From NCBI GenBank assembly GCA_026770705.1, contig JANJGN010000002.1, forward strand, positions 44,268,001 through 44,332,000: a stretch of DNA of 64,000 nucleotides. Direction: 5' to 3'. The position numbers were made by a program, and so were the translations under genes. Of this stretch, positions 17,531-64,000 are shown one piece after another (positions within the stretch are counted from its first letter, which is position 1; each line of letters starts with the position of its first letter). The DNA comes from Isurus oxyrinchus. Its lineage: Eukaryota. Under the pieces are notes generated by a model, which saw only the letters and a program-made list of their open reading frames with translations, had not been told where the DNA came from and made no database searches.

Positions 17531-18052
17531 ACATCATGGTTCTAAGATTATATTGCAAGATACTAGAGCAGAGGTGTTAATCAATTAATTTTGAATGGGT
17601 TAGCATATTTACTTAAAAAACCCAAAAAGAGTAATTTACACACAAAATTTTTCCATGTCATTATTGCGAGATGAACAGAAACTTGCAAATTGGAATTGTA
17701 TTAGGTATGCCACGGGCTTTACCACTCCTCACACGTCCAGTTATAGTGCACCCAATTTTCTAGGCCACGCTTTTTCATTAAACAAATAAGATACATGAAA
17801 GAAATTAACTGGCCTTATTCTAATGGAAGGTTCATAGTTTATAATTAATGTTAGAGAATGCATTATAGCATTGAAATGACTGTTTTCTACTGTACTGTTT
17901 ATGGTATAAACTCCTTTCATGGAGACACTGAGGACAGGTGGTGCTGTTGTAGTGGGGATGGCCATTGCTGTCAGGGGTTGGGCTACTCTATGTGCCTTGG
18001 AGTGTCCACAAAGGAGAATTCCCCTATCCCAGAGTCAGCTGGGAAGCCACCA

Positions 18053-18716
18053 GGGGCATAAATTTCCCCCCGTCGGGGAGTGTTGTGCGGGGTGGGTGCA
18101 AACTGTGCTGCAATTTTACGTGGCCGGGCCAATTAAGGCCCGCCGACTGTGATGCGCGGCTGGAAGTGCTGAGTGCTCCCTGTGCGGGCACAGGGGGTTT
18201 TCCCTGATTCGGGGCCTGCGCTCTTTCATGCATGTGCGCAAAAGAGTGCAGAAATCTCCCTGAGGCATAGAGGTGCCTCAGGGAGATTAGTTTAAGGTTT
18301 AAAAATTTAAGTGAAGAAAAGGAAATATTTTAAGACATGTTCCCTCATGTGACAGTGTCACATGAGCATGGAGATGTCAAGGAATTTTTTCAAAAGTTTT
18401 CTAAAATGAATAAACCCTTCGTGAAACTTCATCCCGCCGTGGATGAGGTTTCATGAAAAATGCGAAGGCCGCTGGGCTCTTCATCTGCCCACCAACCTTA
18501 AGGTTGGACGGGCATCATTCTTAACAACTTTAATTACTTTCTTAATGGCCTTTGACAATTCAGCGGGTGCACAGCTGAGCCGGTTGCATGCCCGCCAAAC
18601 TGACAATCTAAATGACCCGTGGTGAATTCGGGACGCACACCCGATGTCACCATGCTTCATTTTACGCGTCGGTGAGCGGGCCCTGCCCCAGCTCGCCGAC
18701 CCAAAAATTCTTCCCC
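18053..18716. mobile_element. Harbinger-type MITE, multi-hairpin family (duplicate of 12696-13359)
   Basis: Same TIRs and hairpins as 12696-13359. Confidence 0.8.
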
Positions 18717-19053
18717 AGGTTTCACAGCATGGTCTCCTCATGGGCTGCAGGTCTATCCATACTGCTGGTGAAGTACCCTCAGAGGTGGGAAGAAGCACAT
18801 AATTGGTCACTTAAGTGGTTCGATTTGGCTCCCGGGTGGCAGCCACTCTGCCGCCTTTATAACTGATGGGAAATTGGCATCGCAGTGGGAAAACACTCCC
18901 CCCACCTGACATCTTTCCACACCATTTTGTCAGCCTTCCCACCTCCCAGCCTGCCATCAATGATGTCAAAATTCCAACCTGGGTGTCCATCCCTTTGATG
19001 ATACATGGCGATGTTCACACTGCAGGGCAAAGGATTCTAATATTATCACTTAA

Positions 19054-19798
19054 GTTCATGGAATGATACAGCACAGAAGGAAGCTATCCAACCTATTTTG
19101 TCTGCACTGGCTCTTTGAAGAAGCTATCCAATAAGTCTCAATCACTTCCTTCTTTCTGCATATCCCAATAATTTTGTCCCTGTACAAATATATATCCAAT
19201 TCTCTTTTGAAAGTTATTAGTCACCTGCTTCAACCACCCTTTCAGGCTGTGCATTCCAGGTCATAACAACTCACTGTATAAAACAAATTCTCATCACCAC
19301 CCCCCACCCCCCATTTAGTTCTTCTGCCAATTATCTTAAATCTATGTCCTCTGGGTACCAACATTCCTGCTCCTCCTGGAAACCGTTCCTTTTTATTCAA
19401 TCTTTCCAAAACCCCTAATAATTTTGAAGACCTCCATTAAGTCTACCTTTAACTTTCTCTGCTCTAAGAAGAACAATCCCAGTTTCTGTAAGTTCTTCAT
19501 CCTGGTTTAGTTTTGGTAAATCTCCTCTGCATCCTCTCCAAAAACTTGTTACCCTTTGCAAAATGCAGTGCCTAGACCTGGGCACAATACTCCAGTTGAA
19601 ACCTAACCAATGATTTCTGATACTGCAGCATAACTTCCTTGGTTTTGTACTCTCTGCCTCTATTTATAAACCTGTCTTTCTTATTAACAGCTTTATCAGT
19701 TTGTCCTGCCACCATTGAAGATTTATGCATGTGAACCCCAAGTTGCACTCTTCCTACAGTCTCCATAAACTTGTACCATTTAAAGTATATTAAGGCAT
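19054..19798 (-). mobile_element. CR1 LINE 3' fragment (duplicate)
   Basis: ORF 19572-19820 ends in EYKTKEVMLQYQKSLVRFQLEYCAQV. Confidence 0.85.
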
Positions 19799-20904
19799 TA
19801 TTTACAGTGGCTACTAACAAGCTTTTAATAGATGAATGGATGCCAGGGCCTTAACAAAATTCTAATTATTTAACTTGTCTTAGTGCACAACTAAAACTTA
19901 TTTTAATAACCTGTTGTGCGTCTTTTTGAGCTTTTGCAATGGTTGAGATTGACAGGTTGGAATGGTTCTATTGTTTCCTACTGGTTTTGTAGGTAAATAA
20001 TCCAAGACAATTTTAGCCCTGGCAATAACACTTTATCTTCCAAAATAAATATCATTTCTACTCTTGTGTGTTGGGATATTTTTCCCCTCAAAGCCTTTAT
20101 AATTGAAATGCACATGGTTCTTAGAAATAGAATTCAAGTGTTAAAACAGATCCTTTTGGAAAATAAGGTAAGAAAGATAACTTCCCTATAGATTTTCAAT
20201 TTTTCTTCTCACAAAATAATTTCAGGAATTACTGAGGCTTTACTAGATGAGGGATTAAGCATGAGCACCCTGTAGATGCACAGTAGGACATCCATCAGAC
20301 TGCAGCTTCCCCAAAGGAAATCTTTCTGTGGTTGCATACAATGTCCCATGGAACAATACGTTAGTAAACCAGCTGCTCTTCTCTTTTGCTGCGACTGAGC
20401 CAAGTATGGGATGTGTATTTCAAACAGAATTTCTGGATCGAGTTAGCAGGTTTGTATGTTACTGTGTTCATGTACTTCATTACAGTTGAGCTTTTTAAAA
20501 TTTGTAATATAGAATGATATAACTAAGAAAAGGCCTTTCAGGTCATCATGCCTGTGCTGGCACTTTGAAAGAGCTACCTAATTAGCCTCACTGCCCTGCT
20601 TTTTCCCCGAAAGGCATGAAGAGTTACAGTTATAAAGATAGACTTGAGAAACCAAAGCTTTTTTAACTAGAGCTGAGAAGATTAAGGGACGATCTGGTAA
20701 TTATGGAACATTATGATATTGTAAATAGTGATGATTGTTTCCATTGGCATTGGCTTTCAAAAGGGAATAAGCACCTGAAGAGAAAAGATTTGCAGGGCTA
20801 TAGGGAAAGGTCAGAGCAGTGAGACTAGCTGAGTTGCTCTTGCCCATAGCTGGAACAGGTTAGACAGACAGAATGGTCTCCTTCTGTGCTGGAACCATTC
20901 TATG

Positions 20905-21944
20905 GGCTGGAATTTAGGCTCTACTGTTGCCAAATGTGAAAGTGGAGGGGCTCATAAAATAAAACAGGTGGCCTTCCCACCGCATTGCCACCCACCCCTG
21001 ATCTGTCTTCTATATTAAGATGTACAGGGAAAGCTACAGGTAGACCACTTGCCCTTAGATCTATTGAGGCCCTTAAGTAGACATTAATTGCCAGTTAAGG
21101 GCCTCATTCCACCTCTACCACTACTTTACGTACGGCGCTTGGCCTAAATAGCCAAGTGGTTATGGTACTGGGTTTGTAACCCCAAGATCAAGAGTTCAAA
21201 TCTCACAATGGCAAACTATGAAACAATGTAACTTCATCTGAAACAGATGGAAACGTGTTTGTACTCGAAAGAGTTACTTTACGTACGGCGCTTGGCCTAA
21301 ATAGCCAAGTGATTATGGTACTAGGTTTGTAACCCCAAGAGCAAGAGTTCAAATCTCACAATGGCAAACTATGAAACAATATAACTTCATCTGAAACAGA
21401 TGGAAACGGGTTTGTACTCGAAAGAGTTACTTTACGTACGGCAGGGAAAGGCGGTAACAAGGCTTTCGCTGCACGGGCTGCTGTCAGGCAGGGAGGGAGG
21501 GGCATACCTCCTTTTAGGGGTCTCCTGTGCCTATCAGAGGCACTCTCCGCTCCCCAAAATCATACCCCACACCTTTAAGCCTCCCCCTCTGGGCTCTCAA
21601 ACCTGACTCCCCACTCCCCTCACTGGGGTCTGCCAGCCAGGCCCATTCAAAATCCCAGACCTACCTAAAGTTTGGACTCCAGCCGTCTTCTTCTTTGGGG
21701 CCTGACTGTAGTCCCAGCAGTGGCCACTGCTCGATCCTGGCATGGATGGGGCTATTCAGATTGGCCGGTAGCTCTCTAGGGCAGGACTTCCTCCAATATG
21801 GGGAACGAAAATCCCACTCTGAAACAGTTAAGGCTGCTTCCAGCATAATATCACTGCAGGGTAGCCGGGTTTTGGGTGGGTGGACCGACAACGGGCTTGT
21901 CGGTCGGTAGGGCAGGGAATACAGCACCCCATAAAATCCAGCCC
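20905..21944. mobile_element. Harbinger-like MITE, interrupted by a SINE dimer
   Basis: TIRs GGGCTGGAATTTA / TAAAATCCAGCCC. Confidence 0.65.
21137..21427 (+). mobile_element. Tandem dimer of a ~138-bp tRNA-derived SINE-like element
   Basis: Units 21137-21274 and 21290-21427; box A TAGCCAAGTGG, TGT anticodon-like loop (GGG TTTGTAA CCC), box B GAGTTCAAATC; 15-bp TACTTTACGTACGGC at 21122, 21275 and 21428. Confidence 0.85.
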
Positions 21945-23325
21945 TGTGATTCTATTCTGTAACATTCTATATTCTATGTCAAATTTTCATCCACTCAGTC
22001 AATGGGCAGAAAATCTTGCCCAGGGGTGTTCGGGTCCAACTGCACTGTGATAATTCATGTTATTAATTTGGGGAATTTAATTGATGGGAATTAACTGAAT
22101 AGGTCCATAATACTAAATTAACAAACTCTTCCAAAATTTCTTATGTTCATTGGGTAAGGGAGTTTGTGGTAGAAAACAGGACACTTTTCAATGTTGTCGT
22201 TCAATTCTAGTTGATAAGACAAATTGCCATTTTCTTTCATTTCAATAAATAAAATGACAAAACCAAGACAAGCATACATGTAAGTAGACTATATTATAGT
22301 ATTAAGTTAATCCTCAGTTACAATTGTACACAATACCTCTGATGTCAAACAATTAGTATGATCTTTCTGATTTGACAACTGTAGCTGTCAAAAGGGTATG
22401 CTGCAATTGCTCAGCAAGAAATCAGCATCTGTCAATAAAATATGTTGGTTTCCTTCTTCTACAATGAAAATTAAGTTGAGCCTTTTTATGGAATGTTTGA
22501 AATATAAATTTCAAGACACTGTACATTATGTTGTGCTTCCAGTGAATTGGTCTATATTTGTTAGCAATAAATCAAGACACTGACACACCTAGAATCCTGA
22601 TTTAATTTAGAGGCACACCTGATTCAAGTTTGCCCTGCCAACAAGAAGAGGCCCAAAGAAGGGATATTTAAAATTATTTTTGTGTGGGGGCCACACAAAA
22701 GGAAGGAAACCAACATATTTTATTGACAGATGCTGATTTCTTGCTGAGCAATTGCAGCATACCCTTTTGACAGCTACAGTTGTCAAATCAGAAAGATCAT
22801 ACTAATTGTTTGACATCAGAGGTATTGTGTACAATTGTAACTGAGGATTAACTTAATACTATAATATAGTCTACTTACATGTATGCTTGTCTTGGTTTTG
22901 TCATTTTATTTATTGAAATGAAAGAAAATGGCAATTTGTCTTATCAACTAGAATTGAACGACAACATTGAAAAGTGTCCTGTTTTCTACCACAAACTCCC
23001 TTACCCAATGAACATAAGAAATTTTGGAAGAGTTTGTTAATTTAGTATTATGGACCTAGTCAGTTAATTCCCATCAATTAAATTCCCCAAATTAATAACA
23101 TGAATTATCACAGTGCAGTTGGACCCGAACACCCCTGGGCAAGATTTTCTGCCCATTGACTGAGTGGATGAAAATTTGACATAGAATATAGAATGTTACA
23201 GAATAGAATCACAGGGCTGGATTTTATGGGGTGCTGTATTCCCTGCCCTACCGACTGACAAGCCCGTTGTCGGTCCACCCACCCAAAACCCGGCTACCCT
23301 GCAGTGATATTATGCTGGAAGCAGC
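21833..23325. repeat. Near-perfect inverted duplication, 624-bp arms, 245-bp spacer
   Basis: 21833-22456 is the reverse complement of 22702-23325; two mismatches found by eye. Confidence 0.95.
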
Positions 23326-27606: not shown

Positions 27607-29203
27607 GAGATAAAAGCAAAGAACTGCAGGTGCTGGAAATTCAAAACAAAAACAGAAACAGAAATACCTGGAAAAACTCAGCAGGTCTGGCAGCATCGGC
27701 GGAGAAGAGCACAGTTGACGTTTTGAGTCCTCATGACCCTTCAACAGAACTAAGTAAAAATAGGAAAGGGGTGAAATATAAGCTGGTTTAGGGGGGGAGG
27801 GTGCGGGTTGTTGGGACAAGCAGCCAGTAATAGGTGGAGATAACCAAAAGATGTCACAGACAAAAGGACAAAGAGGTGATAAAGGTGGTGATATTATCTA
27901 AAGGAATGTGCTAATTAAGAGTTGAGAGCAGGACAGACAAGGTACAGGTAGCTCTAGTAGGGGTGAGGTGAAGGAATACTAAACGGGCGAAAAGGTAGAG
28001 ATAAACAATGGGTGGAAATACATTTAAAACAATGGAAATAGGTGGGAAAAGAAAATTCTATATAAATTATTGGAAAAAACAAAAAGGAGGGGGAAGAAAC
28101 GGAAAGAGGGTGGGGATGGAGGAGAGAGTTCAAGATCTAAAATTGTTGAACTCAATATTCAGTCCGGAAGGCTGTAAAGTGCCTAGTCGGAAGATGAGGT
28201 GCTGTTCCTCCAGTTTGCGTTGAGCTTCACTGGAACAATGCAGCAAGCCAAGGACAGACATGTGGGCATGAGAGCAGGGTGGAGTGTTAAAATGGCAAGC
28301 GACAGGGAGGTCTGGGTAATGCTTGAGAACAGACTGAAGGTGTTCTGCAAAGCAGTCACCCAGTCTGCGTTTGGTCTCTCCAATGTAGAGGAAACTGCAC
28401 TGGGAGCAACGAATGCAGCATATTAAGTTGAGGGAAGTGCAAGTGCGGTTTCATCTACATTGGAGAGACCAAATACAGACTAGGTGACCGCTTTGCAGAA
28501 CAACTTCGGTCTGTCCGCAAGCATTACCCAGACCTCCCTGTTGCTTGCCATTTCAACACTCCACCCTGCTCTCTTGCCCACATGTCTGTCCTTGGCTTGC
28601 TGCATTGTTCCAGTAAAGCTCAACGCAAACTGGAGGAACAGCACCTCATTTTCCGACTAGGCACTTTACAGCCTTCCGGACTGAATATTGAGTTCAACAA
28701 TTTTAGATCTTGAACTCTCTCCTCCATCCCCACCCCCTTTCCGTTTCTTCCCCCTCCTTTTTGTTTTTTCCAATAATTTATATAGAATTTTCTTTTCCCA
28801 CCTATTTCCATTATTTTTAAATGTATTTCCACCCATTGTTTATCTCTACCTTTTAGCCCTTTTAGTATTCCATTACCCCACCCCCATTAGAGCTATCTGT
28901 ACCTTGTCTTTCCTGCTCTCTACTCTTATTAGCACATTCCTTTAGATAATATCACCACCTTCAACACCTCTTTGTCCTTTTGTCTGTGACATCTTTTAGC
29001 TATCTCCACCTATTACTGGCTGCTTGTCCCAACAACACCACCCCCCAACCAACCTTTAAACCAGCTTATATTTCACCCCTTTCCTATTTTTACTTAGTTG
29101 TGTTGAAGGGTCATGAGGACTCAAAACGTTAACTGTGCTCTTCTCCACCAATGCTGCCAGACCTGCTGAGTTTTTCCAGGTATTTCTGTTTCTGTTTTTG
29201 TTT
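27607..29203. mobile_element. Penelope-like retroelement insertion: two 5'-truncated copies in inverted orientation
   Basis: Plus arm from ~28450 encodes YIGETKYRLGDRFAEQLRSVRKHYPDLPVACHFN..QRKLEEQHLIFRLGTLQPSGLNIEFNNF (GIY-YIG endonuclease C-terminal half); minus arm ~27646-28445 is its diverged reverse complement; flanking TAGATATCAATATA (27593) / TAGATCTCAATATA (29204). Confidence 0.9.
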
Positions 29204-29614
29204 TAGATCTCAATATATTCTGTTCCATTTACTCCATCATCAAGTGTCACATGCTTACTTGAAACATGTGGTTGTGGAGAACAAAAGTAGCTGAATGCTA
29301 ACAAGCAGGGTCTGGTACTGGATAGGAAATAGACATCAGAGTTTTGAATTAACTTAAATTTAGGGCTCATGGTGGATGGGAGGTCAAGTCTGCAGGTGAC
29401 AAAGGATAAAGGATTCAAGAGCAGATGGGTGGGCAATATTATAAAGGTGAAAGTAGGCAGTCTTTGTGATGAGACTATATGAAGGTGCAAGATCTACTCG
29501 GGGTTGAATGGAAGATGAAATTAATGTAGGAAAAGGTAAAATATTACACTAGAAGGAAAATACCAACATACTCCATGAATTGTGTTAAAATATCTAAGGA
29601 TTGGGTTTAAGAGG

Positions 29615-32255: not shown

Positions 32256-34679
32256 ATCATATGTACTCAAAATCCATCTGTCTGTCTTTATGCAGGAGAA
32301 GGCAACCCACAACAGGAGGGAGAGAGAGAAACCAGGAGGGGGGATGCCCTGAGCTCTGGCCCCTCATACAATTTGAACAACAGGCTGCCGAGCTGGCAGG
32401 GGTAGACTGTGACTGTGCCTGTGCCGATGGTGAGGTCAGCATCCCCCAAGCATCTAGCGAGAAAACATGCATAATCCAGACTACCTCAGGAAATCAAGGT
32501 GATTGATAAATGCCAAGTTTGAGCCATCCTTGGCAGTCACTCATCCTCTCCTCTCTCCATTCTAGGTGCCAGCAGGAAGAGGGTGAGGCCAGCCCCTGCA
32601 CCAGAATATGCTCCAGCCCCCAGAACTTTTCACCTGTACAGCCGTCACAGCATTCACCTGCACCTTCCATCAGCTCAGAGGCACACACCTCGGTAGCTCA
32701 TATATCTAGGTTAGGCTCGGGCTCTGGTGATCACTGCACAGATACGTGTCTACATCAGGAGGAGGCAGTGACAGTCAAGGTCTCTGGCACTCAGACAATT
32801 GCTGGAGTCTGAGTCAGATAACGAGTCTCTGGAAATGACCATGGAGAGGATGCTGGAGTGTCAGTGAGACACGGAGAACATCAGGCAGATGTGTCAGAGG
32901 CCCTCAACAGAGTGGTACGTGAAGCAGTGTCTGCCAATGTGCTCTCTGATGTCATGGCTCTGACATGTGAGCACATCGAAATCTCCACGGGCAGGATGCC
33001 AGATGCTGTGCAGAACCTGGTTCAGAAGAACGCCCGGTTTCTGCCGGAGATGTGCTCAGATCTGCACTCCATTTCTGTAGGGTGAGCTTTTGCAGTGGCT
33101 ATGCAAGAGGGGGACAGGTGCCCCTTCTCTTCAAGGAGTCAGGGAGGAGCCCTCAGCCATCCAAATGGAGAAGAAGCGTCAGGCAGACACCCCAGGGGCA
33201 TCCACCCAGTAATCTCCAAGGGTGTCCAGACGTTCCCAATCCCCTCTGCCTGCGACCTCATCGGCTCAAGCTGCTTAGACTAAGGAAGGTGCACCTCTCC
33301 CTGAGCAGGAGACCCAAAGCAGGCCGAGGCCCTCCAGGCCTCACCCTCCAGAGGGCGCCCGCCAAAGTCATCACAGACAACAGGGCATGGTAGTCAGCAG
33401 GCTGCCTCCTTCTCTGCTGTGGCTGTCAGGGAAGCACCTAAACATAGTGATAGAGTAAGGAAAATTAAAAAGTACAGAATTAGCAATGGTGGCACGGATG
33501 TTCAATCATTGTAAATAGTTTTTACATTCCCAAATATATGCTATGTTGCACTGTTTAGAAGTCTCCTGGATTCATTCTTGCTGCTAGTCATTATAAAGAT
33601 CGTGCCCACTCAACCTCTTCCGGGTTGGACCAAGGATGGGTCTTCCTTCCCATAATACGTGGCTGCACATGGAGGCATCACTCTTTGACAAGCATGATAA
33701 CTGCCATGTGTGAGAGGCCTCCCACTCACACAATTCCGCTTGCACCCACGGCCTTCAGGGCTCTATGGATAGACCTTGTCATAACGAAAAGACTAACCAC
33801 ATGAACCCATGTCAGGTAGGTTCATCACCTCAGGAGGATAGAGGTTTGCAGCCACGACTTGGCTGTCAATTACTTGCATGCCCCTTGTAGGCATCCCCCT
33901 CCCTCCATTCCCCCAACCATTCTTCCCTAACTCTGCCTGGAGCAGATATGGCCAATGGTTCAGAGTGAACGTCAGCTCTGCACCTTGATGGAATCTCGTT
34001 GTCATGAGAACCCTCTGGGCCAGACCTGCTGCCATGTGGACTTCACCAAACAGTGAGGAATATCAAATGAGAAAGCTCTCTTACATTCTCCACATGATTA
34101 TTAGCATTTCCCTTTAGTTGCCCAGTTGTGCTGACCTTTAATTGCACCCACCTGAGCACGCTCTCCCCCTACCCCAATGCTTTGTACCTTGGACATTGAA
34201 GGAGTTGCCTTGGTCTGGAGCAGGAGTTGTCTCAGGATGGTGCGAGTTTCATTTCAACCTGTCTCCACCATATTTTACTCTCCCCCTGTCACCCACCAAC
34301 TACCCCCCATCATTGTTGACACCCCTGATGTCACCTTCACTCTCACATCAGTAACCTTTTAGCTTTCCCGCATCACCCTGGACCCTATCACTGTTAACCT
34401 GCATATGCCTTCCCTCCCCACTGAGCTCACCCCAGTCACTGTTCCTATGCCCACCCTGATCGTCTCTACTCCTGTGATCTGTGTCACCATCTCTGCCCCC
34501 CTCAATGAACCCCCCAGATAAGAACAATACCCACCATACCCGGAACCTGACCCTCCCACCCTACCGCGTCCCACTTCCCCTTCTCACAGTCACTGTCCCC
34601 TCATATCACCAGCACCCTCAGTTCTCCCCGCAGATTTCTGATTTGACTGACCTCTCCCTTGAAGCACTCTAGCCTCACC

Positions 34680-42860: not shown

Positions 42861-44068
42861 GCCAACAGCCCAACATATTAGTGTACCAACAATGTGCAAG
42901 GCAAAAGCAACATTTTAGTTTGGCCATCAGGGAGGGACACCAGCCACTTCCCCACAAAAAAGAAGAGAAAAATAAATTATGAATGAGCCTGATTATTCTC
43001 ATACTACTCCCAGTGGCCTGTCAAATAGTAGCATAAACAAAGCCAGGATGGGAAGTCACCTAGTTGTCCCTCAATTGGACAATAGTGGGATCCGAAAAGA
43101 TGGCAGGAAAAATAAACATAAAAAAGGGATGGGACATAATGGGAGAAAAAGAAAAATAGCATGGAATTATGTATGGTTTCACATCGCAGCAAGCTTGCGA
43201 ACAGTAACTAACTTATTACAACAATACAGGTTCATAGACAAAATGTTCATTTCTTAATATAGCATTCTTTCATTTATAGTAAACTTATTTCAGTGAAACA
43301 GCTCTCTCTGGATTTGCATCTCAGATATTACCAACAAATTTATACAACGCTGGTGCATGAACAAAACTGAATTAAAATAATGTAAGCACATAATTAAATG
43401 TGGACAACAAGGGTATTTAAGGCATTGCTATATGTAAATTTTTGTAGAGGATAAGGATTACAGTAGCTGTTGCAAGAGTTTTCATTAATGCTGTACGGAT
43501 ATTAAATCGAAAAGTAATCCTACCTTTGCTTCTTGAGTTATGATCTTGAAAATGTAATATAAAAATTGCATTACACTAATTCAAAATTGAAAAGAAAAAA
43601 TAATCTTACCAAGACATTACAAATGTCATTATCCTGACTAAAGGTAAACCACATGCAGATCGTTTCCATAGATTCTGACAATTAACCTCATTCCAACCTT
43701 CTGCAAATATTCTTAGTCACTGCCTTGTCAAGCTGATGTTGTCAGGATCCCAATATAGCTCTTTAATTTTTAATTCCTAGGATCTCAAAACTATAAAAAT
43801 CATTACCTTTTTCAGGCTTACCCTACTTCTATAGTGTTCAAACTTTTGAAACCCAAGTTAGGTGTCACCTAATCACTACATTTTGCTTTACTACCTTAAC
43901 CATTTAAGCTTTTCAGTATCCTCCATTTTGGGCTTTAGCAATTAATCTTGGCTTCTAAATAAAAATACAATGGAGGCACATTTTCCAATAGTAACTCATG
44001 TGATGCAACTGAATATTCAGTTCTTGTATAAATTTGGTGATTTTGTTGCATCCAACATGTCACTTCTA

Positions 44069-44204
44069 TAAAAACAAAAAAACTGCAGATGCTGGAAATC
44101 CAAAACAAAAACAGAATTACCTGGAAAAACTCAGCAGGTCTGGCAGCATCGGCGGAGAAGAAAAGAGTTGACGTTTCGAGTCCTCATGACCCTTCGACAG
44201 AACT
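44069..44204 (-). mobile_element. Short Penelope-like terminal fragment with hammerhead motif (44166-44204)
   Basis: Nearly identical to 27610-27751; minus strand AGTT-CTGTCGA-AGGGTC ATGAG GACTC-GAAA-CG-TC-AACT. Confidence 0.8.
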
Positions 44205-46989: not shown

Positions 46990-49760
46990 GTGCATTTCCC
47001 ATAATGATTCCATACCGACACCCCAAATTAATGGTGTGAGAATCAGGGAGCAGGAACCTAGTGGCCTCTCTCCAGATGGCAGTATTCCTGTTCCCTTCAC
47101 TAATGCCCTTGCAGTTGCCCATCAATGGGCAGCCTCCACTGAGGTGGTGTAATCTGAAGCAGGCCAACACAGCCCACAGCCCCTTGAGAGTGTCAGAGGA
47201 GGACATCTGAACTGCCCTCTTCACATTCTCAGCATCCATGCTGCTGCCACTCAGGTTCCACTTCACAGAAGCATCAGAGTGGACAGCAGCACTCCAGGAT
47301 ACACATTGGGAATAAGCCCCAATGTGAATAGTTTAATATTTGTAGGCGCTATTGGTTGTGTGATGCTTTCATTGTTTATTTTCTAAATGAAGACTGATTA
47401 TGTTAATAGAGTTGTGATGGAATTGGTGGCCGTTTTTGATGTGTTCTTCATGGGAGGTTGTTGAAAGGATTGAGCGCAGCCCCTGGATGGCTTGATGGTT
47501 CCTCAGTCATAGATAATTTTACATGTGGCAACAGTGTCTGATATGGAGAATATCTCTCAAAAGCGGTTTTCGATTATTGGTGAGGACAAGGTGCACATGC
47601 ATTCTGCTGCAGAGGACTCAGATGGGGGACTTTGATGAGGCCGGCCACAGAAGAAGGCTGACGGGTATGTGCAATGAAAAGCTTTGTGCAATTTTAAGGA
47701 GCATCAGAAATCTGGCATCAAGTTGATGCATGGCTTTAAGCGCAATTTGAAGCCCATCCTTTTCAGCATGGAAGTGGTGACCAAGTTGATTAGAGCACTT
47801 GCAGATCAAAGCTTGATGCAGTATCTGATGGTCAATGTCTCAACTCCCACTGCAGCACAAACAGAAGCCACCCAATGTTAGGGTGCTGCAGTGGAAGCTC
47901 AAACGTCGGTTGCATAAGCTCAGACTGCTGCCACCATGGGTGCAGATAGCAGTGTGAAATGGGGTTTGCAGAATGTCATGGCAGTCCAGCAATCTGTCTT
48001 CCAACAAATTACTAGGATTGCTGAGGTGCTGCCCTGGGGAGTGGCATGGTTCCATTAAGCATGAACCTGCTATCCTCTCTCAAGAAGACAGCATGTGTCT
48101 TCCCATCACTGCCATTCCATCACTGTCCTTGCTGTTGCCTATTAGGCAGCCAGCTCAGACTGCTGCTACCCATGCTGAGATATTGCAATCTAAAATGGGC
48201 TTTCTAGAGCTGCTCGAGGTCATCCTGCAAGGCTATCTGCTGTCTCCTCTGCTGAAAGTTAGCAGCTTTCCACCAGTCATGTTACATCCACTGGGTTAGA
48301 ACAGTATAGGAACACTGGGACAAGCAAAGACGCCCCTACAAGACAGGTATTAAGGGAATGTGCAAGGATGATTAGTTGACATTTGCATGCAATATGGCAG
48401 ACTTTGAGTTATAAGTTTTATTTGGAATGTTTATTTTATGTTGCCTTTTATTTTTGCATGCGGCCAAGTGAACTGTGATGTAAAAACAGAAAATGCTGGA
48501 AGAACTTAGCAGGTCTGACAGCATCTGTGGAGAGAGAAACAGAGTTAACGTTTCAAGTCCGCATGACTCTTCTTCAGAGCTCTAAAGCTCTGAAGGTTGG
48601 CTCCTCCCTTCCTCTTTCTCCACTTCCTCCTGCTCCTCAGCTGTCTCCATATAGCTGGTGGCAAGAGCTCATGATGGCGAGGTTGTGCAGCATGCAGCAC
48701 ACTACCATGAATCTTGATGCCTACTCAGCTGAGTATCCCGGAGCTCTTCCAGAGTGGTCCCGGCAGTGGAACTATTGTTTCAGCACCCTATGATCTGCTC
48801 TATCACATTTCTTATGGAAGCATGACTTTTGTTGTATACATGCTGCCCACATGTACTGGTTGTACACCAGGGTCATGAGTCATGTCATCAAAGGATAGCA
48901 CCTGTTGCTCAGTTACAGCTCTCTGGTTTGTAGTGGTGTCTTAAATGTAGATGGCATTTCAGGAATCTGCAGAATCAAGACATCATGACTGCTTCCAAGA
49001 TACCAGGCACTGGCCTGAATGATACTCTGTGCATGATTTCACACCAATAACACAGTGAGGGAGTAGAATCTCTTTCAGTTACGGTGTATCCTAGGGTTGA
49101 CACACATTGCCTGCAAAACAACGTACATACAGCAATGGCACCCTGCACCATGGAAAGCCTGTAAGCCTTGCAAAGCTGTGTGCTTGCTCTGCCTACTTTT
49201 CTCTGGCAAGAGAGAATGAAATGTATTCAGCTCTCTTTGCACACACTGCCTCAGTGACATCCCTTATGTAACAGTGGATGGCAAACTGGGAGATGTTGCA
49301 AATATCACCTACGCCAGTCTGGCAGGAGCCGAATACATGAAAGTTCTTGGGCATCGTCAACTCCACAGCCACTGGCAATGTAGTCTTCGCTCTGCTCTGA
49401 GGTTGCAATGTGGCTGCAATAGATGTTACGTTTCAGTGAAGACGTCCTTCCTGAAGTAGAGACATCTGATACACTGTTCCTTGCTGAGGTTCAGGTAGGA
49501 GAATTGTACCCTGAACAGCCTGGGCAGATATGGCCTCCTTCTAAGAAGCCTTCTTCCCTTCCTCCACCTCCCTCTTCTAGCAGCTTGTCCTGCTCTGTTC
49601 TGCCTCTGTTCATTCTCAGTGTCAGGTTATAATTCAAGGGGAATGCCTATTGCTGCCTCCATGCCTGTGAGTAATTTATGCAAAATCCTTGAAGTCAGGA
49701 CAAAGTCCAATAGCTGCAGTGTTGAGCTGTAAGATGGACTTCAAATCAGTATTATATATT
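46990..49760 (-). mobile_element. Decayed autonomous-type Harbinger: HARBI1-like DDE transposase pseudogene (~48660-49600, minus) with a probable convergent partner ORF remnant (plus)
   Basis: Minus peptides TTLPVAVELT..GDICNISQFAIHCYIRDVTEA; NRN*KRFYSLTV; WYLGSSHDVLIL; HASIRNVIEQII..; VVCCMLHNLAI. The partner ORF assignment is inferred from element architecture. Confidence 0.8.
48481..48582 (-). mobile_element. Short Penelope-like terminal fragment with canonical hammerhead core
   Basis: Minus strand AGCT-CTGAAGA-AGAGTC ATGCG GACTT-GAAA-CG-TT-AACT followed by ..CCACAGATGCTGTCAGACCTGCT..CCAGCATTTTCTGTTTTT. Confidence 0.75.
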
Positions 49761-55612: not shown

Positions 55613-56066
55613 TGATATATTTTAACCCATTTTAAAATCAAAAAAGTTCCAACATCATTAAATAGGTGCTGGCTATTGCTTGGAACCACATTGTTTCTGT
55701 AAACCACAAACCAGAGTGTGAAAATAAATCAAGCAAACAACAGTAACACTTTATCGACAAAAGCCAGACGATGCAACTGCACAAACACCAGTCAAGATGT
55801 ACTGTCATTACAATGATTCACACCTGGTTTTATTGTATAATCTAGCAAGCAAGGTAAAAGCTTCAAGAAAAATTTGAGGAATGAACATCCAACTATATAA
55901 TGTTTGATCACTTTTAGAGAAAAAAGAAATTTGATCTTGGGAAAGGCAATAATAACTGAAGTGAGAGTCATATTCTGCAAATTGAGAACAGCTGATTATC
56001 ATTCTAATCTGCAGAATCTGTACAGGTGCAATGAAGAGTAACAGGATGAAGTGAAGGGGGTTTGTA

Positions 56067-56157
56067 ACTCTTTCGAGCACAAACACGTTTCCATCTGTTC
56101 CTATTCAGATGAAGTTACATTGTTTCATAGTTTGCCATTGAGATTTGAACTCTTGAT
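56067..56157 (-). mobile_element. 3' portion of the tRNA-derived SINE-like element (Tx1 target)
   Basis: ACTCTTTCGAGCACAAACACGTTTCCATCTG..GAGATTTGAACTCTTGAT is the reverse complement of the 21137 unit tail; preceded by TGAAGGGGGTTTGTA (56052-56066). Confidence 0.85.
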
Positions 56158-56274
56158 AATCTTTTAAATGAAAACAATTAAACCAAATCAACAAAATTGG
56201 GATAAATCAGGCACAGCCCCTAATTCCGGTCAACTATAAAACCAAGGACAAAATTTAAAGGAACCTTACAAACT

Positions 56275-59200
56275 TTAAATCAAAATGTGATTAAAGGGGT
56301 CAACAAAACACCCCAGTCCATGCGGTGGCCACCGAGCACGGAAGGCCTCGAGCGTGTCAGCAGACACCGCGTGCTCCTTCTCCAGGGACATCCGGCAGCG
56401 AACGTAGCCGCGGAAGAGGTACAATCGGGCGGGACTCCCCCGTCGATCGCCCGCTGCCTGGACCTGTTAATGGCCAACTTGGCCAGGCCCAGGAGCAGGT
56501 TCACGAGGAGGTCCTCCTCCTTCCCGACCCCATTCCGCACCGGGTGCCCATAGATCAGGAGCGTGGGGCTGAAGTGCAAGCAAAACATCAATAAAAGGTT
56601 TTTCAAATAACTAAAAAGGGGAGTGCAGCCTACAACACCCTATATATACATGGTCCACGGACTCCACAAGACCGCAAAAAGGGCACGTGTCCTGAGAGTC
56701 CGTGAACCTATGCATCCTCTTATTATACGGGACTGCTGCATGCAACACCCTCCAACCCAGGTCCCCGATAGAAAGGGGGAGGACACCTCCGTAGAGGGCC
56801 TCCCATTGGGGCCTCCGCCGCCGGACGGCAACAAGGCACGCCAGGGCGTGTCCGGGCGGTGGACAAGGGCGAGAAAATGGAAGGTGTGCAGCAGCAGTCC
56901 ATACAAAAAGCCCCTCTTTGCCGTGCCAAAAGGCACAGAGGGCATGTCCCCGAGGCGGCTCATATTGCGGGGCATCAGCACCCGAGGGAGGGTTCGGGGC
57001 TTGGGGCCAATGTGAAATTCTGTCCGAACAGGGGAACGTTCAGACGGAAGACCACCGTGCACCTGGGCCACCTCAAGACCTAAAATTACATTGGGTCCGA
57101 GCACGACTGTCCTTAGGTCTTGGATGGCATCGGCTGCGACCTGGACACTCACAGACGCACGACACGCCAACTCCTGCGGGAGCATCCAGCCCAGTCCTCC
57201 ACCACCCAGCACGTCCCCGATCCTGGTCACCCCTGCAGCCACAGCCCTCCTCTCCGCCAACCACTGAAAAGGACGGAGGGGTGGATTCCTGAGCAGCGGC
57301 TCTCTGACGATAGCCGCTACTCCTGACGGGGGAGAGCTGCGTCGCGAGGCGACCACTTTCCAGACTTTGATCAGGTCCTGGTAAAAGACGGGCAACGCCT
57401 GCAAGGAGCCACCGAGGCCCATCTGTTCTATAAACAGGGGCTGCACGTCATAATTCAGACCGTGCACCTGATGGAAGAAATATGTCATCAGAGCACACCA
57501 TCTAGGAGGAGGCTCGACGTAGAGGTATTGCTGCAGGGTCTGAAGGCGGAAAGTCTCCACCTGTGTGCGTAGGCACACTAGCGCCTGACCACCCTCCCTA
57601 AGCGGGAGACTCAGAACCTCGGCAGCGACCCAGTGCAATCTTTTGTCCCAGAAGAAGTCGACTAACAATCTCTGGATTCTTGGGACAAAGTCCGGGGGAG
57701 GGGTGAAAGTGACCAGCCGATACCACAACATGGCGGCGATCAGCTTGTTTATGACCAGAACTCAACCTCGGTAAGATAGCACTCGGAGCAGTCCTGTCCA
57801 GCGCCGCAGGCGAGCGGTGACTTTCGTCTCCAGTTCCTGCCAGTTTGCCGACCAGGATTCCTCAGCAGGGCAGAGATGGACCCCCAGGTAGAGGAGGCTG
57901 GTCCTGCTCCAGGTGAAAGGCCTGAGCTCCTCGGGTAGGGGATCCATCTGCCACTGACCGACCAGGAGTCCAGAACATTTCTCCCAGTTGATCCTGGCAG
58001 AAGAAGCGGCAGAGTAGACCTCCTGGCACTCGCACATCCTCCGCAGGTCAGCCGGGTCACTAAACATAAGGATCACGCCTGGCCCGCGCAGAACCAATCC
58101 CGACAACCTCCTCCGCAAGAGGCGCAGGAAAGGCTCCACGCAAATAGAATACAACTGGCCAGACAGGGGGCAGCCCTGACGTACCCCTCTCCCAAAGCGA
58201 AGGGGCGCCGTCAGGGACCCGTTAACCTTTACTAGACACTCCGCGGCAGTGTACAGAAGTCGGATCCGGGCGACAAAATGCGTCCCAAACCCGAACGCTT
58301 GCAGAGTTCCAAGTAAGTATCCGTGATCCACCCTGTCGAACGCCTTCTCCTGATCGAGAGACAGGAAGGCGCTCGACAGACCAGCCCTCTGGGAATGGTG
58401 GATGATGTCCCGGACCAGATGGATGTTATCGTAAATGGTTCGGTCCAGGACGGTTTAGGACTGGTCAGGGTGGATCATGTGGTCCAGCACGGTGCCGAGC
58501 CGAGAAGACATGGCTCGGGCGAAGATTTTGCTGAGGAGGGAGACCAGGCACCAGTTTTTCAGAAGGCGGAGATCCCCCTTCTTTGGCAGCAGGGCAATCA
58601 CGGCCCTGCGCCATGAAAGGGGCATCTCCCCGGTAGCAATGCTCTCCCCCAGGACCCCCGTGAAGTCGCTCCCTAAGACGTCCCAGAACGCCCTGAAGAA
58701 CTCCACAGTCAGCCCGTCTAGTCCCGGGGTTTTGCCCCTAGAAAGACCGTCGAGTGCGCCGGTCAGCTCCCCCAGACTTATAGGGGAGTCAAGCTTTCCG
58801 GCGCACTCCAGGCCGACCTGCGCAGGTCCTCCCACAAAACTCTGCAAGCTTCCTCACTGGACGGATCCGGAGACAACAGGGCAGTGTAATAATCTCGGGC
58901 GATGGCCCTGATGCCCTCCTGGTCCGAGACAAGGGATCCATCGTCGGCCAGCAGCGTAAGGAGCTGCTTACGGACTCCGTGCCTTTTTCCCAGCGAGTAG
59001 AAGAAGGGGGAGCCGCGGTCCATCTCCTTAAGGAAACAGATCCGCGACCTCACGAACGCGCCCCAAGACCCGACCAGTTGCAGGTCCCGCAGCGCGCCCT
59101 TCTTCTCATCGTACACCGACCGCAGGGCCGGGTCCTCGTCGGGCTGACAGAGATGTGCCTCCAGGTCGAGCACCTCCTTCTCCAACTCCTCGACCCTGGA

Positions 59201-60127
59201 TTTGCATCTCTTTGTCGACCCCTTCGCGTACTCTTGACAGAAAACTCGGACATGAGTCTTGCCCACGTCCCACCATAGCCTCAAGGAGGGGAAGCCTCCC
59301 CGCTTCCTTCTCCAGCCGGCCCAGAAGCGACGGAACGAGTCCAGGAACCGCTGGTCTTCCAACAACAGGTTATTAAAATGCCAGTATGCAGACCCCGTCC
59401 GAGCACAGAACGAAGTGAGCTCCGCCCACACCAGACGGTGGTCCACGCACGGGACCTGCTATATAGAAGCAGCCGGAACGCAGGACACGTACGCCTTTGA
59501 AACGTAAAGGCGGTCGAGTCTGGACGCTCCGACTCCAGGTGACACAAAGGTGAACACGCTGGAGTCAGGATGGAGATTTCGCCAGACGTCCACCAAGTCG
59601 AAGGACCTGACCAGGTCAGGCAACTTACTCACACCTCGCGTGCAATGCTGGATACCGTGACGGTCCCGGACCCCGAGGGTGCAATTGAAATCTCCCCCCG
59701 AGGACGACGCACTCGCCAGCGTCGATGGAGCCGAGATGAGTGGACACTTCTTCAAAGAAGCTCGCTTGCTGCTGCGTGCCCAGGGGAGCGTATACATTCA
59801 CAAAGTGAAGCACCGCGCCCCCCCCCCCCCCAGACGCACAGTCAGGTGCAGCAACCGGCCTGGCACCGGCTCCTTGACCCCCAAGATCTCCGGCTGAAAA
59901 TGCGGGGCCAACAAGATAGCCACCCCGCCAGAATTGGAGGCTAGGTGACTCATGTAGACCCCCCCTCGCCACTCCAGGAGCCACGTGGCTTCGTCTCCCG
60001 GAACGGTATGGGTTTCTTGCAGGAAGCACAACGCATACTTCCCATCCCTGAGGACCAAGAAGTTCTGGAACCTGCGCTGTGCGCCCCTGCTGCCGTGGAT
60101 GTTGAGGCTGGCTATAGTCGTCTTCAT
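56275..60127 (-). pseudogene. Tx1 ORF2 (APE endonuclease, reverse transcriptase, C-terminal CCHC), disrupted
   Basis: MKTTIASLNIHG, FLQETH, GGDFNC, SRLDRLYVS, DHRLV (endonuclease); KTPGLDGLTVEFF, GVRQGCPLSGQLY (RT); CPFCGLVESVDHVYIGC. Several frameshifts and a stop; YADD segment absent. Confidence 0.93.
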
Positions 60128-60179
60128 TGTCAAAGGTACATCAAACCTTCACCGTAAGTAATTAAAAAAAGAGGACTTT

Positions 60180-62311
60180 TTAGTCCTTCCTCTCCTTCAG
60201 GAGCCCAGCGAGAAACGTTTGGACCCTCCGCCGCGCATTCCTATCCAACTCGGGAGACTTGAGAGCCTCGCGAGTGGACCAGAACACCAGCGGAAACAAA
60301 TGCCACCGGTCCAAGGCCAACTGAACCCTGTCTCGGCGACCGCGGTGCCCCGACAAAAAGTCCAGGAGTTCCCTTGGGGGGATGAGGGGGGAGTCAGTGG
60401 AGGGCACCAGGGGACCACCGCCTCGCTTGAGAGCGACTCTGCGTAATCCCCAACGCTCACCACCGACACCCCCGTCCTCCGGGTCGTTGCCTCCAGCTTC
60501 CGACCCCTCCCCCGCATTGAGTACGGGGGCTGATTCGGAGCTGCCAGCTGGCTCTGTCTGTGCCTCGATCCCACCCCCAGGATCAAGGCCAGAGGAGTCC
60601 TCTCTGGTCTCCACTAAACTTCTTGGGCCAGAGGGCAGCGGCAGTTCTGATGCCCGCTCTCCTCCCGGCACCGGGTCGTCCGGGGAGCTCAGGACAAGCT
60701 CCTGACCTAAACATAGGACGCCCGGTGTCAAGGTTTGGGAGGGAGCGGGAAGGCCCTCCTTTTCGCTGCCACCCAATGACCCATTTATATTTTTTAGATT
60801 TTGAAAGCTGCAGTCCTCCGACGAGCCAGAAGGTACCTCGGGGGTATTGAGTGTGTCGGAGTCGGGCACCACCTCAAGGGAGGTGCCCTCAGTGACCCCC
60901 GAGGGGCCCTGTTCAGGGGACTGCAGCAGGTTGATGGGGGGAACAGTGTTTGGTGTGGGGGTAGGGGTTATGGATTCCCCCAGAGGACAGGGCGAGGTTT
61001 TATTTGGTGGAGACGCCACCACCTCTTCATCGGGGGAAGGGACACACCCAACTTCTTCAGTTTGGGCATCGTCCACTTCCTCCTCCGAAGCGTGACGTCT
61101 CTTCCGGGTCAGGCTGGGGGCTAGGGAGACCTCCATTTCTGAGGCCCCCTCCTCCTTGTCCAGCCCTCCCGGACACTCCACCCTCTGGGGTTTCGATTTT
61201 TGTTTCCCCGGCTCAGGGTCCCGCGTCTTTTCCCCGCCGGCCCTGGGAACACGCGCAGGGACGACGCTGGGCCCAGCACACGGCGCCTTAGCGCCCACGG
61301 ACCCGGGAGCACACGCGGACACGACGCCGGGGCTGGATGATGTTTTGTCCCCCGAGCTGGTTTTTCCAGGTGTTTGGGGGGTTTGGGGGGTTTCAGGGGC
61401 CGCCTCCAGGTTGCGGGTCTTCCTCCGCACCTTCTTATGGTGCGGGGGCTCTCCCTCCGCCTCACCGGCAGCCGAGATGGCAGTGGCTGCCGGCATCGCC
61501 TCCCCTTGCGGGGAGGGAGATGGAGTGGTGGCGGGGGGAGGGGGGGGGCGGTGCCAGCCGCGACCGCTTGGGTGGGGCTCGTGGCCTTGGAGGCGGGGCA
61601 GTTCTTCCTCACGTGCCCCGCCTCCTTACAAGCATGGCACCGCACACCCTCCGCGGTCCAGAAGACCCGATAGGCGGTCCCCTCAAAATTGATAGTGAAG
61701 GCCCCCTCCAGGCACTCCTCCCGGGCCAAGCGGACAAATACCTGGTGCCGGAAGGAGTACACATGGCGAAGGGCCGAGTCTTTGAGGCTGAGCGGGACTG
61801 GCACAACCCCCGACCCGACCTCCCCCAGTTTATTAAGGTGGGGGAGGAGGAGCTCACTGGATAGGAAGGGCTGGACATTTGATATGATAATTCTCTGGGC
61901 GGTGGCCTCAAGGGGATCCACTGCCAGAAAAGTCCCGCCCACAGTGAGTCCTTTTTGCAGGGCGAGGTGCACCGCCTGCTCGGACCTCAAGAAGAATATG
62001 GCCTTCCCATACATTTTAGAGGCCGCAACAATGGCTGAGGGGCCGACGACCCTAGCCATAGCCTTAACGCAGGCCTCTATTGTCATTTCAGGGTGAGTAT
62101 AGCTCTTTACCCCGAGGGCCCTGGTGAGGAGACGGAAAGGCGACAGGGCAGCGGGAGCAGCAGAAGCAGCCACCCCCGCATAGGTTTTCTTTTGAGGCCC
62201 TGTCACTGGTGACAAAACTGCCTTCACATTAGCCCTCAAGGGCCCGGCCACAGGCGATGGTGAATTGGCCTTAGGGCCAGAGCCACACCCACCCTGGGAA
62301 GGATTGGCCAT
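60180..62311 (-). pseudogene. Tx1 ORF1 (gag-like nucleic-acid-binding protein, CCHC zinc knuckle), one apparent frameshift
   Basis: MANPSQ..AASKMYGKAIFFL..RIIISNV..HVYSFRHQVFV..CHACKEAGHVRKNC; frame changes near the G-run at 61530-61548 into the Pro/Ser/Glu-rich ORF 60180-61496. Confidence 0.9.
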
Positions 62312-63035
62312 CTTTTAATTTTTCAAAAAAAAATATATATATATTATATTTTTTTTTTATTATATATTTCCTCCCTAGGGAGGGGAGGGGGGGGAGAAAG
62401 GTTGGAATAACTTCCCCTCTTTTACACAGGAGAGGAGAGGAGGGAGAGGAGTAAAGGACAGGGAGGCACAGGAGGGAAAGAGGAAAAAGTCCAGGTGGGT
62501 GTCTCTGATGTTAAATGGATGGTGGGTGGGGGCCTGATGGTCTTCAGGCAGGGGGAGGCAATGTCTTCACCAGCTACTGCTGGTCTTACCGGGAAAGGGC
62601 TGGGTGGGGGAAGGGTGGCAGAAAGATGGTTTCACCACACACACACCCCCCCTCTCTTCCTTTCCCAACCCCTCTGGCAGTCTTCTTGCCTCCCCCTACA
62701 AAACACAGTCCTTAATTGCCCCCACCTTAACAAAAATACACAGTTTTAGACACCCACCTAGGATGTTTTTTTTTCACAGTCCTGGCCTCCTGGCCTTCCT
62801 GTCCTGCAGCAGCAACAGAAGCTGTTCTTCTTCTCTCCCTCTCTCTCCTTATGCTCCACAGGGGCAGGGGCAGCAGCAGCACACAGCAGAAGCAACCCCA
62901 AAAGCAGCAGCAGAAACAGTTGAAACACTGAGGAGCAGCAACACCAACAGCCCACACCTTCTCTCCTCAATATCAGGGAACAAACTGAATCCACAGTTGC
63001 CTCCATGAGATCGTTAAGAAGATGAACTCTTGATA

Positions 63036-63740
63036 CTCTTTCGAGCACAAACCCGTTTCCATCTGTTTCAGATGAAGTTACATCGTTTTTGCCATTGTGA
63101 GATTTGAACTCTTGATCTAGGGGTTACAAACCCAGTACCATAACCACTTGGCTATTTAGGCCAAGCTAAAAGTAACTCTTTTGAGTACAAATATGTTTCC
63201 ATCTGTTTCAGATGAAGTTACATTGTTTCAGAGTTTGCCATTGTGAGATTTGAACTCTTGATACTCTTTCGAGTACAAACCCGTTTCCATCTGTCTCAGA
63301 TGAAGTTACATTGTTTCATAGTTTTGCCATTGTGAGATTTGAACTCTTGATCTTGGGGTTACAAACCCAGTACCATAACCACTTGGCTATTTAGGCCAAG
63401 CTGAAGGGGGTTTGTACTGAGCCAGCTGACCGATGATACTCTTTCGAGCACAAACCCATTTCCATCTGTTTCAGATGAAGTTACATTGTTTCATAGTTTG
63501 CCATTGTGAGATTTGAACTCTTGATCTTGGGGTTACAAACCCAGTACCATAACCACTTGGCTATTTAGGCCAAGTAAAGAATTGCTGGGTTATTGTAACT
63601 CTTTCAAGTACAAACACGTTTCCATCTGTTCCTATTCAGATGAAGTTACATTGTTTCATAGTTTACCATTGTGAGATTTGAACTCTTAATCTTGGGGTTA
63701 CAAACCCAGTACCATAACCACTTGGCTATTTAGGGCAAGC
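63036..63740 (-). repeat. Array of five tRNA-derived SINE-like units
   Basis: Units 63036-63166, 63175-63262 (partial), 63263-63401, 63438-63574 and 63598-63740; spacer TGAAGGGGGTTTGTACTGAGCCAGCTGACCGATGATA at 63402 and again (one mismatch) at 63741. Confidence 0.9.
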
Positions 63741-64000
63741 TGAAAGGGGTTTGTACTGAGCCAGCTGACCGATGATAGTGAATTAGATTCAATTAGCTTC
63801 AATTTCCCCATACTAGTGAGGTTCAAAAAGTAAGAATTTCAATTATTGAATTATTGATTACTAGTCAGTAGTTCCTGTGCTCAGTTGTGATACCTTGGCA
63901 TCAATCTGCCTGCCAACAATTCCCATGTGAGCTCAAACATGAAAAATTACAACAGGGATACTATGGTACCCCCAGTGCCTGTGGCACCCCACATGCCCGT

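Follow-up and report, generated by a model that had tools for sequence, protein, structure and literature searches.

The DNA analysed here is a 64,000-nucleotide stretch of Isurus oxyrinchus (GenBank assembly GCA_026770705.1, contig JANJGN010000002.1, positions 44,268,001 to 44,332,000 of the forward strand), referred to below as the window and numbered from its first letter. Between 56052 and 63776 it contains one full-length long interspersed element (LINE), assigned to the Tx1 clade (minus strand, 56158–63034), and six copies of a short interspersed element (SINE), two of which are 3' parts only. A first-pass annotation had described a single 7.7-kb composite lying between copies of a 15-mer. 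The 15-mers are present, identical at 56052–56066 and 63402–63416 and with one mismatch at 63741, but the composite consists of two blocks, 56052–63416 with a 15-nt target-site duplication (TSD) at its edges, and 63402–63776 with a 36-nt direct repeat at its edges. The window LINE belongs to a subfamily termed Tx1-B; its sister Tx1-A, which inserts into an old Harbinger transposon, is described further on. The features of the composite are listed below.

56052..56066, no strand: left copy of the 15-nt TSD of the first block, at a GTA-type site, identical to 63402–63416.
56067..56157, minus strand: SINE copy A, an 88-nt 'tail unit' (3' part only) stopping at the box-B insertion site; BLAST to SINE positions 1–88, 90%.
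56158..63034, minus strand: Tx1-clade LINE, subfamily B, full length, without poly(A), about 92–97% identical to other B copies.
56280..60127, minus strand: open reading frame 2 (ORF2; endonuclease, reverse transcriptase, C-terminal zinc region), split over several frames; from the ORF list, Pfam RVT_1 and tblastn with an intact natural copy.
61121..62311, minus strand: ORF1, open, about 397 residues, with a weak CCHC zinc knuckle; from the ORF list.
63013..63024, minus strand: the Harbinger target sequence of Tx1-A kept at the Tx1-B 5' end, the same 12 nt as in the empty Harbinger site and in Tx1-A TSDs.
63023..63034, minus strand: SINE box-B target 12-mer as the probable Tx1-B 5' leader (the 'TSD' of the first-pass annotation).
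63035..63166, minus strand: SINE copy B, complete, C-variant, GAT junction (sequence comparison, as for all rows below except the two spacers).
63167..63174, minus strand: foreign spacer with an A-run at its start, likely the 3' trailer of the copy C RNA; differs from the local TSD.
63175..63262, minus strand: SINE copy C, a tail unit, T-variant, GTA junction.
63263..63401, minus strand: SINE copy D, complete, placed at the box-B site of copy C.
63402..63437, no strand: right-hand 15-nt TSD of the first block with 21 nt of flanking sequence, together the first 36-nt direct repeat of block two, GAT-type.
63438..63575, minus strand: SINE copy E, complete, C-variant, with a GAT junction not within any SINE.
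63576..63597, minus strand: foreign spacer with an A-run at its start, likely the 3' trailer of the copy F RNA; differs from the local TSD.
63598..63740, minus strand: SINE copy F, complete, T-variant with a longer loop, GTA junction.
63741..63776, no strand: second 36-nt direct repeat of block two, with one mismatch.

As the first-pass annotation had stated, every SINE 3' junction in the composite (6/6) follows GTA (at 56067, 63175 and 63598) or GAT (at 63035, 63263 and 63438), and neither the LINE nor the SINE ends in poly(A). The 12-mer TGAACTCTTGAT flanks the window LINE on both sides (56146–56157 and 63023–63034) and overlaps the T-arm/box B of the SINE tRNA-like head; on the plus strand, the final 12 bases of SINE copy A are this Tx1-B target. 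Elsewhere in the window, at 21123–21442 (minus-strand view), two further complete tandem SINE copies (21138–21427) follow GTA, with a 15-nt site duplication present three times; this is a second, independent SINE insertion site.

The window ORF2 is broken, and a 1,303-codon ORF2 frame is open in four copies fetched from the genome. In an intact copy, apurinic/apyrimidinic endonuclease (APE) and reverse transcriptase domains are detected; its ORF2 is 49% identical to the Xenopus Tx1 ORF2 (UniRef YTX2) over 100% of the length, its endonuclease is 44% identical to that of Tx1L, and its highest-identity protein match is a stingray fragment (67% over 34% of the query). The assignment to the Tx1 clade is drawn from this closeness to Tx1-type proteins, not from a tree with named Tx1 families. 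The CCHC knuckle match of the 397-residue ORF1 (E 0.0035) falls short of the Pfam cut-off. The family shows target-sequence preference, TSDs and 5' truncation. Both the LINE and the SINE families are contained, along the whole element, in sequence runs of two organisms; an empty allele was not found in contigs from those runs. L218:335–7229, L230 and L226 (Tx1-sense reversed) have a third type of 3' end within this Tx1 family, and the three copies seen all sit inside other Tx1 copies, in the 3' end or the 5' untranslated region, which suggests a further target. A literature search found no account of the family or of a Tx1 element aimed at its own SINE; Repbase lay outside that search, and names may exist there.

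The SINE is about 137 nt long, with a tRNA-like head, no poly(A), and many dispersed copies with TSDs. A 39-nt pattern of the head has 11,826 exact matches in the 4.98-billion-base genome (here and below, genome counts are by exact pattern, with 0 matches to the reversed-pattern control in every count). The entire Rfam tRNA model scores 22–24 bits in the window copies (cut-off 29), and 36.2 and 29.5 bits in other copies; the head with its boxes A and B places the SINE, on sequence features, among the tRNA-derived SINEs (SINE2), and the UGU at its anticodon position would point to a threonine tRNA. The short unit has TSDs and no Rfam match to a hammerhead/retrozyme or Helitron, and these identities were rejected for it. 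The A-runs at the start of foreign spacers (see below) are indirect evidence suggesting transcription by RNA polymerase III. Folded on its own, the SINE terminus forms a small hairpin with a GAAA loop, and folds of the whole unit put the hairpin elsewhere. The terminal 12 nt are those of many young Tx1-A copies, and the Tx1-B end is a degenerate version; in the one A copy compared, the 3' 75 nt of the SINE show no homology to the Tx1 body past this terminus of about 12 nt. The two elements thus appear to have in common the 3' end that the stringent definition of a LINE/SINE pair demands, and the shared ends, targets and chimeras suggest that Tx1 proteins mobilise the SINE.

Across the genome, Tx1-B targets a single nucleotide of the SINE immediately ahead of box B. 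Its 5'-end pattern has 432 genome matches. Apart from the window copy, 21 of the 29 best-scoring Tx1-B copies adjoin the SINE at the same nucleotide and eight do not. In a second set of 29, taken in order of position and having five loci in common with the first, 20 adjoin the SINE box-B site, two adjoin the 5' leader of B itself and seven lie elsewhere (six after GAT, one after CAT). For one Tx1-B 3' variant, 130 of its 240 copies have the 13-nt SINE site before them (exact pattern, a lower bound), and, by simple arithmetic, even 100,000 SINE sites would make up less than 0.3% of the TGAT sites in a genome of this size. The enrichment of Tx1 in the SINE bears out the earlier proposals that the SINE carries the Tx1 target and seeds landing pads, and that nested arrays grow at the box-B site. 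About a quarter of Tx1-B copies are off-target. No tRNA gene was seen at off-target junctions in the 16 of 18 loci read directly, and ARAGORN reported none in 17 of the 18, the remaining locus having two genes, both away from the junctions. The targets are dispersed GAT sites and the head of the SINE; spacers of tRNA gene arrays were not encountered among them. The Dewa-like tRNA targeting invoked earlier did not hold up, as the closest characterised relative is Tx1L, which targets a DNA transposon, and tRNA genes were rejected as the target after ARAGORN found none in the window or at the off-target junctions (no direct search of the tRNA genes of the genome was made).

The 5' end of Tx1-B runs from A-like sequence through the Harbinger site to the SINE site. 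The 12-mer follows the Harbinger motif in 30/30 best-scoring and 30/30 position-ordered 5' ends (both sets include the window copy, and nine of the position-ordered ends are one tandem array with a SINE-variant 12-mer). Among 39 paired full-length copies, the 3' flank is the box-B site in 33, a B 5' end in two and unrelated DNA in four, and the 12-mer is present at the 5' end in 38, including all four with an unrelated flank. Six copies have a variant base in the 3'-side site, and in five of them the 5' side does not share it; some of these disagreements could have arisen by later mutation. The first-pass annotation was right that the 12-mer overlaps box B, but as a plain TSD of full-length Tx1-B it was rejected, since it stays where the 3' flank is unrelated. 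True TSDs do occur in truncated Tx1-B copies and in a rarer 5' variant (L350, L351). The 12-mer is likely part of the Tx1-B RNA, a captured leader, and each full-length insertion would therefore rebuild a target. What comes next after 29 Tx1-B 5' ends is another B 3' end (12), a SINE 3' end (10), a SINE head (6) or a foreign spacer (1). In the rarer B variant (L141, L180, L350, L351, L353) the 5' junction has a SINE site of varying length, possibly an earlier stage preceding fixation of the 12-nt leader. At L308–L316 (C2, ~61.83–61.89 Mb) there are at least nine tandem units of about 7.4 kb, made of full-length Tx1-B and SINE pieces and including one intact ORF2, which look like DNA-level amplification.

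The motif beside SINE ends was traced to an old repeat whose copies are 70–80% alike over about 3 kb; 672 exact empty sites were counted. Both of its two transposase pieces match DDE_Tnp_4 (E 1e-13 and 2e-14), and one of the two weakly matches Myb_DNA-bind_4 (Myb/SANT-like, E 0.004); these domain matches identify it as a PIF/Harbinger DNA transposon. Tx1-A targets the stop codon at which the reading frame on the Myb-gene strand ends. Tx1-A sits exactly at this site with 13–15-nt duplications, often stacked; its insertion points lie directly after AAGAAGATGTA in old Harbinger copies and after TGTA at dispersed sites. Tx1-A Harbinger junctions have 909 genome matches (the motif being required by the pattern). 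A young Tx1-A variant has 281, of which 40 were fetched, and all 40 junctions were GTA (the pattern fixed only TA). Outer junctions are Harbinger-like in 25/34 cases for Tx1-A, 16/108 for the SINE and 0/16 for Tx1-B. The earlier proposal that the window's own Tx1 mobilises the SINE probably holds for the family, whose ends and targets are shared, but most SINE sites outside the SINE are GTA, those of Tx1-A and not of Tx1-B; in the comparison of targets and TSDs, likewise, it is the sister Tx1-A that matches the SINE (Harbinger site, TGTA, TSD range). Tx1-A and Tx1-B are about 92–96% identical. In a tree built from the 700 nt at the 3' end (19 A, two third-type, 28 of 83 B and five B-variant copies), all 33 B-type rows form one group within A, beside a young A copy (support 94/72); this nesting suggests that Tx1-B descends from within Tx1-A. 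A diverged Harbinger piece (67–72%) that stops at the Tx1-A target motif lies in the window at 33115–33525, and at L160–L173 (C1, ~28.19–28.21 Mb) a satellite-like array of truncated Tx1-A units of about 430 nt, with the Harbinger site between them, extends over 20 kb.

TSDs had been given as 13–15 bp; with one mismatch allowed they range from 8 to 17 nt, mostly 13–16 nt (27/83 outer junctions), and a looser search gave 10–19 nt (39/158 junctions). Where a SINE sits at the box-B site of another SINE, no second head is present in 67/75 cases, which fits a new head joined to the identical old head, with 88 nt gained per round. The 149 distinct spacers between tandem SINEs comprise 44 Harbinger-like, 35 local TSD, six box-B and 64 foreign sequences (the SINE counts are from loci selected with Tx1 patterns or as the top matches to a C-variant copy, not ordered by position). 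Of the foreign spacers, 57/64 end in GTA, and 30/64 begin with AAA, compared with 3/35 of the local TSDs (p 1e-4; background 11%); one is found at two loci (L078/L122 and L264). Read as RNA, they are likely flanks of donor loci with a U-run at the end, which were copied in full as the enzyme jumped from end to end. Harbinger-like linkers lie behind truncated LINEs at 6/10 loci without a visible Harbinger (53 junctions examined). Copies of U6 stand at 5' junctions of Tx1/SINE copies at four loci (L130, L210, L280, L287), and a 5S copy at one (L189). These chimeras show the same reverse-transcriptase jumping, and resemble the U6-L1 chimeras of mammals.

The SINE variant is linked to the junction class. 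Across all units, GTA junctions have 177 T and 5 C variants and GAT junctions 48 T and 82 C; with one draw per locus and class the counts are 124 T/3 C and 26 T/45 C (p 2e-22). Dispersed GTA and GAT sites both have TG at −4/−3 and G at +4 (13/23 and 5/5), as do the Harbinger and box-B sites. In the endonuclease (263 codons), B departs at five codons from most of the three young A copies, a count that leaves out L225 (a B copy) and L218 (third end type). All five fall within residues 149–161, a segment of 13 residues that follows the GDFN motif. It aligns with a loop of L1 whose R155 is proposed to touch the DNA on the downstream side of the nick (PMC1950540). B copies are nearly uniform in this segment; every B residue in it also occurs in one of the three A copies, and two B-ended box-B copies have an A-like loop. 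A fixed endonuclease signature for B was rejected, as no residue splits all three A copies from B. The endonuclease hairpin loop, found most important for L1 specificity (PMC1950540), is three residues shorter than that of Tx1L and is identical in 2/3 young A copies and 40/66 other rows.

We consider it probable that one relaxed endonuclease serves both subfamilies, that pairing between RNA and primer sets the target, and that Tx1-B arose through its RNA 3' trailer and not through a new endonuclease. Annealing of RNA to the target at priming has been reported for SART1Bm and is cited for R1Bm (PMC7265360). Copying at chromosomal nicks starts at the hairpin, and the primer would therefore pair with the first trailer bases. 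RNAs of A and B may also borrow each other's proteins. A tentative but quite possible extension is a target memory in RNA, whereby Tx1 and the SINE inherit their site from the donor flank via a read-through trailer, letting the LINE pass from a dead Harbinger to its own SINE with an endonuclease essentially unchanged. The starting point is the Tx1-A copies at Harbinger and TGTA sites. A SINE with the same small end hairpin would then be copied by Tx1 proteins, and its transcripts would extend into the donor flank as far as a U-run; the nicked 3' end would pair with the first trailer bases, so that progeny land at donor-like sites. A copy landing at a GAT site in the SINE would have founded subfamily B and the C-variant SINEs, with trailers matching box B. 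Insertion at box B mostly swaps the old head, presumably by homology, and adds one 88-nt unit per round; full-length B, with the target at its 5' end, would rebuild the landing pad, and end-to-end template jumps would add more SINE, U6 or 5S copies.

Several observations weigh against this account. The link between variant and junction could equally come from two partner proteins or from two ages, and the GAT off-target logo is built on five sites. The endonuclease is covered by three young A copies, and the A/B differences cluster in residues 149–161; the C-terminal third of ORF2 holds seven more. An A-run is absent from 34/64 foreign spacers, some of which may be TSDs with a partner beyond the fetched flank, and the putative trailers are read from DNA spacers. 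The B group's support in the tree stays under the starred threshold, with a bootstrap that had yet to converge.

The main alternative is that two enzymes are at work, a B endonuclease changed in the 149–161 loop nicking the SINE site, with SINE variants using A or B proteins and the trailers being passengers. It would account for the confinement of all five flagged codons to that loop, for the near uniformity of B there and for the tracking of junction class by SINE variant, and endonuclease or loop swaps alter specificity in other LINEs (as described in PMC1950540 and PMC4494074). The presence of each B loop residue in one of the three A copies, the A-like loop of two B-ended box-B copies, the unchanged main hairpin loop and the flanking bases common to both site classes speak against it, and we regard it as unlikely. 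On balance we favour the pairing of RNA and primer over a change of enzyme, with a confidence just sufficient to call it probable, yet three A copies cannot settle the matter, and the two mechanisms could operate side by side.

Alternatively, the box-B junctions could be reverse-transcriptase jumps between RNAs that start there (processed SINE RNA, the B leader), within single insertion events. The 67/75 SINE-at-box-B cases without a second head or TSD, the invariant B leader and the end-to-end jumping evident in foreign spacers and U6/5S chimeras agree with this. However, copies of B and the SINE also lie at dispersed GAT sites where the GAT is part of an ordinary TSD (five cases), 5'-truncated B copies lie in box B with 13–15-nt duplications (L190, L192), and a SINE head stands behind 6/29 full-length B copies, which together make this explanation improbable. 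That another LINE family, such as the CR1-type copies of the window, moves the SINE while Tx1-B merely exploits an abundant repeat would suit the confinement of SINE–Tx1 homology to the last ~12 nt and the pairing of known shark SINEs with CR1-type LINEs (PMC3747384), but the exact terminus, Harbinger site, TGTA motif and TSD range common to the SINE and Tx1-A, and their alternation within the same arrays, leave it very improbable and largely refuted by the shared targets.

Acquisition of new targets by site-specific LINEs is usually credited to the endonuclease. Here the ancestor (A) and descendant (B) stand side by side in one genome with hundreds of copies, four intact ORF2s and a SINE using both sites, and the question of endonuclease versus RNA is therefore testable with natural sequences. 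If an RNA trailer does steer a relaxed APE-type enzyme, this would bear on the retargeting of LINE proteins for gene insertion. If the target memory is real, the SINE multiplies landing pads for the LINE while each LINE insertion rebuilds one. The system also adds a rare Tx1-tailed tRNA SINE, and a LINE parasitising its own parasite.

Three other repeats were noted in the window. A head-to-tail duplication of 5.4 kb (9326–14729 and 14732–20061, 96% identity) has LINE fragments inside. A 624-bp inverted repeat (21833–22456 and 22702–23325, with a 245-bp spacer) is 99.7% identical and therefore very recent. A 1.56-kb segment (27643–29204) pairs with its own reverse complement at 92%, and its ends are found again at 44068–44204 and 48484–48572; it is possibly a foldback element or one resembling a miniature inverted-repeat transposable element (MITE).

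Each ingredient of the system has a precedent; no published account was found (Repbase not searched) of a switch from a DNA transposon to the LINE's own SINE, with captured 5' targets and evidence of RNA trailers. In crocodilians, as described in PMC4494074, Tx1-Mar and SINEU have a common Mariner target, with tandem copies around the TSD and 5' additions, and Tx1-9_AMi targets Harbinger transposons. The present system is similar in that Tx1 LINEs and a SINE have a common DNA-transposon target, tandem copies, and small-RNA or target sequence at their 5' ends. SINEU differs in having poly(A) and heads derived from U1 or U2, and a LINE with the 3' end of SINEU-1 was not found there; the present SINE has a tRNA-like head, no poly(A) and a 3' hairpin in common with its LINE. 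With that head, no poly(A), and Harbinger and the SINE as targets, membership in SINEU/Tx1-Mar is not indicated. The parts of the main text covered here (the supplements, with Tx1 targets, not among them) contain no Tx1 aimed at its SINE and no switch of the A-to-B kind, and the Harbinger site of Tx1-9_AMi lies about 300 bp from the 5' end, whereas the site here is the Myb/SANT-like gene's stop codon. Tx1L of Xenopus laevis is likewise a two-ORF APE-type LINE aimed at a DNA transposon (PMC1950540, PMC4494074). Tx1L is described as highly specific for Tx1D; Tx1-B is relaxed, with about a quarter of copies off-target and the shorter hairpin loop.

Among the zebrafish Tx1-type elements, Dewa, Keno and Mutsu also insert sequence-specifically into multicopy repeats related to small RNAs. 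The Dewa target is reported to be the spacer of tRNA-Leu genes (PMC3706591), unlike that of Tx1-B, which lies inside the tRNA-like head of a mobile SINE. In its tRNA head, LINE-like 3' stem-loop and lack of poly(A), the SINE resembles shark HE1 with HER1 and eel UnaSINE with UnaL2 (PMC3747384). Partners of the HE1/UnaSINE type are CR1, L2 or RTE LINEs, whereas the partner here would be a Tx1 element and the common part is only about 12 nt; L1-clade tails occur in only 3/58 LINE/SINE pairs in the same survey. As in SART1Bm and R1Bm (PMC7265360), RNA 3' sequence would pair with the nicked target and fix the start of reverse transcription. In those elements, as described there, annealing sharpens one endonuclease-defined site, whereas here it would hand a target preference from donor to progeny and so open a new target.

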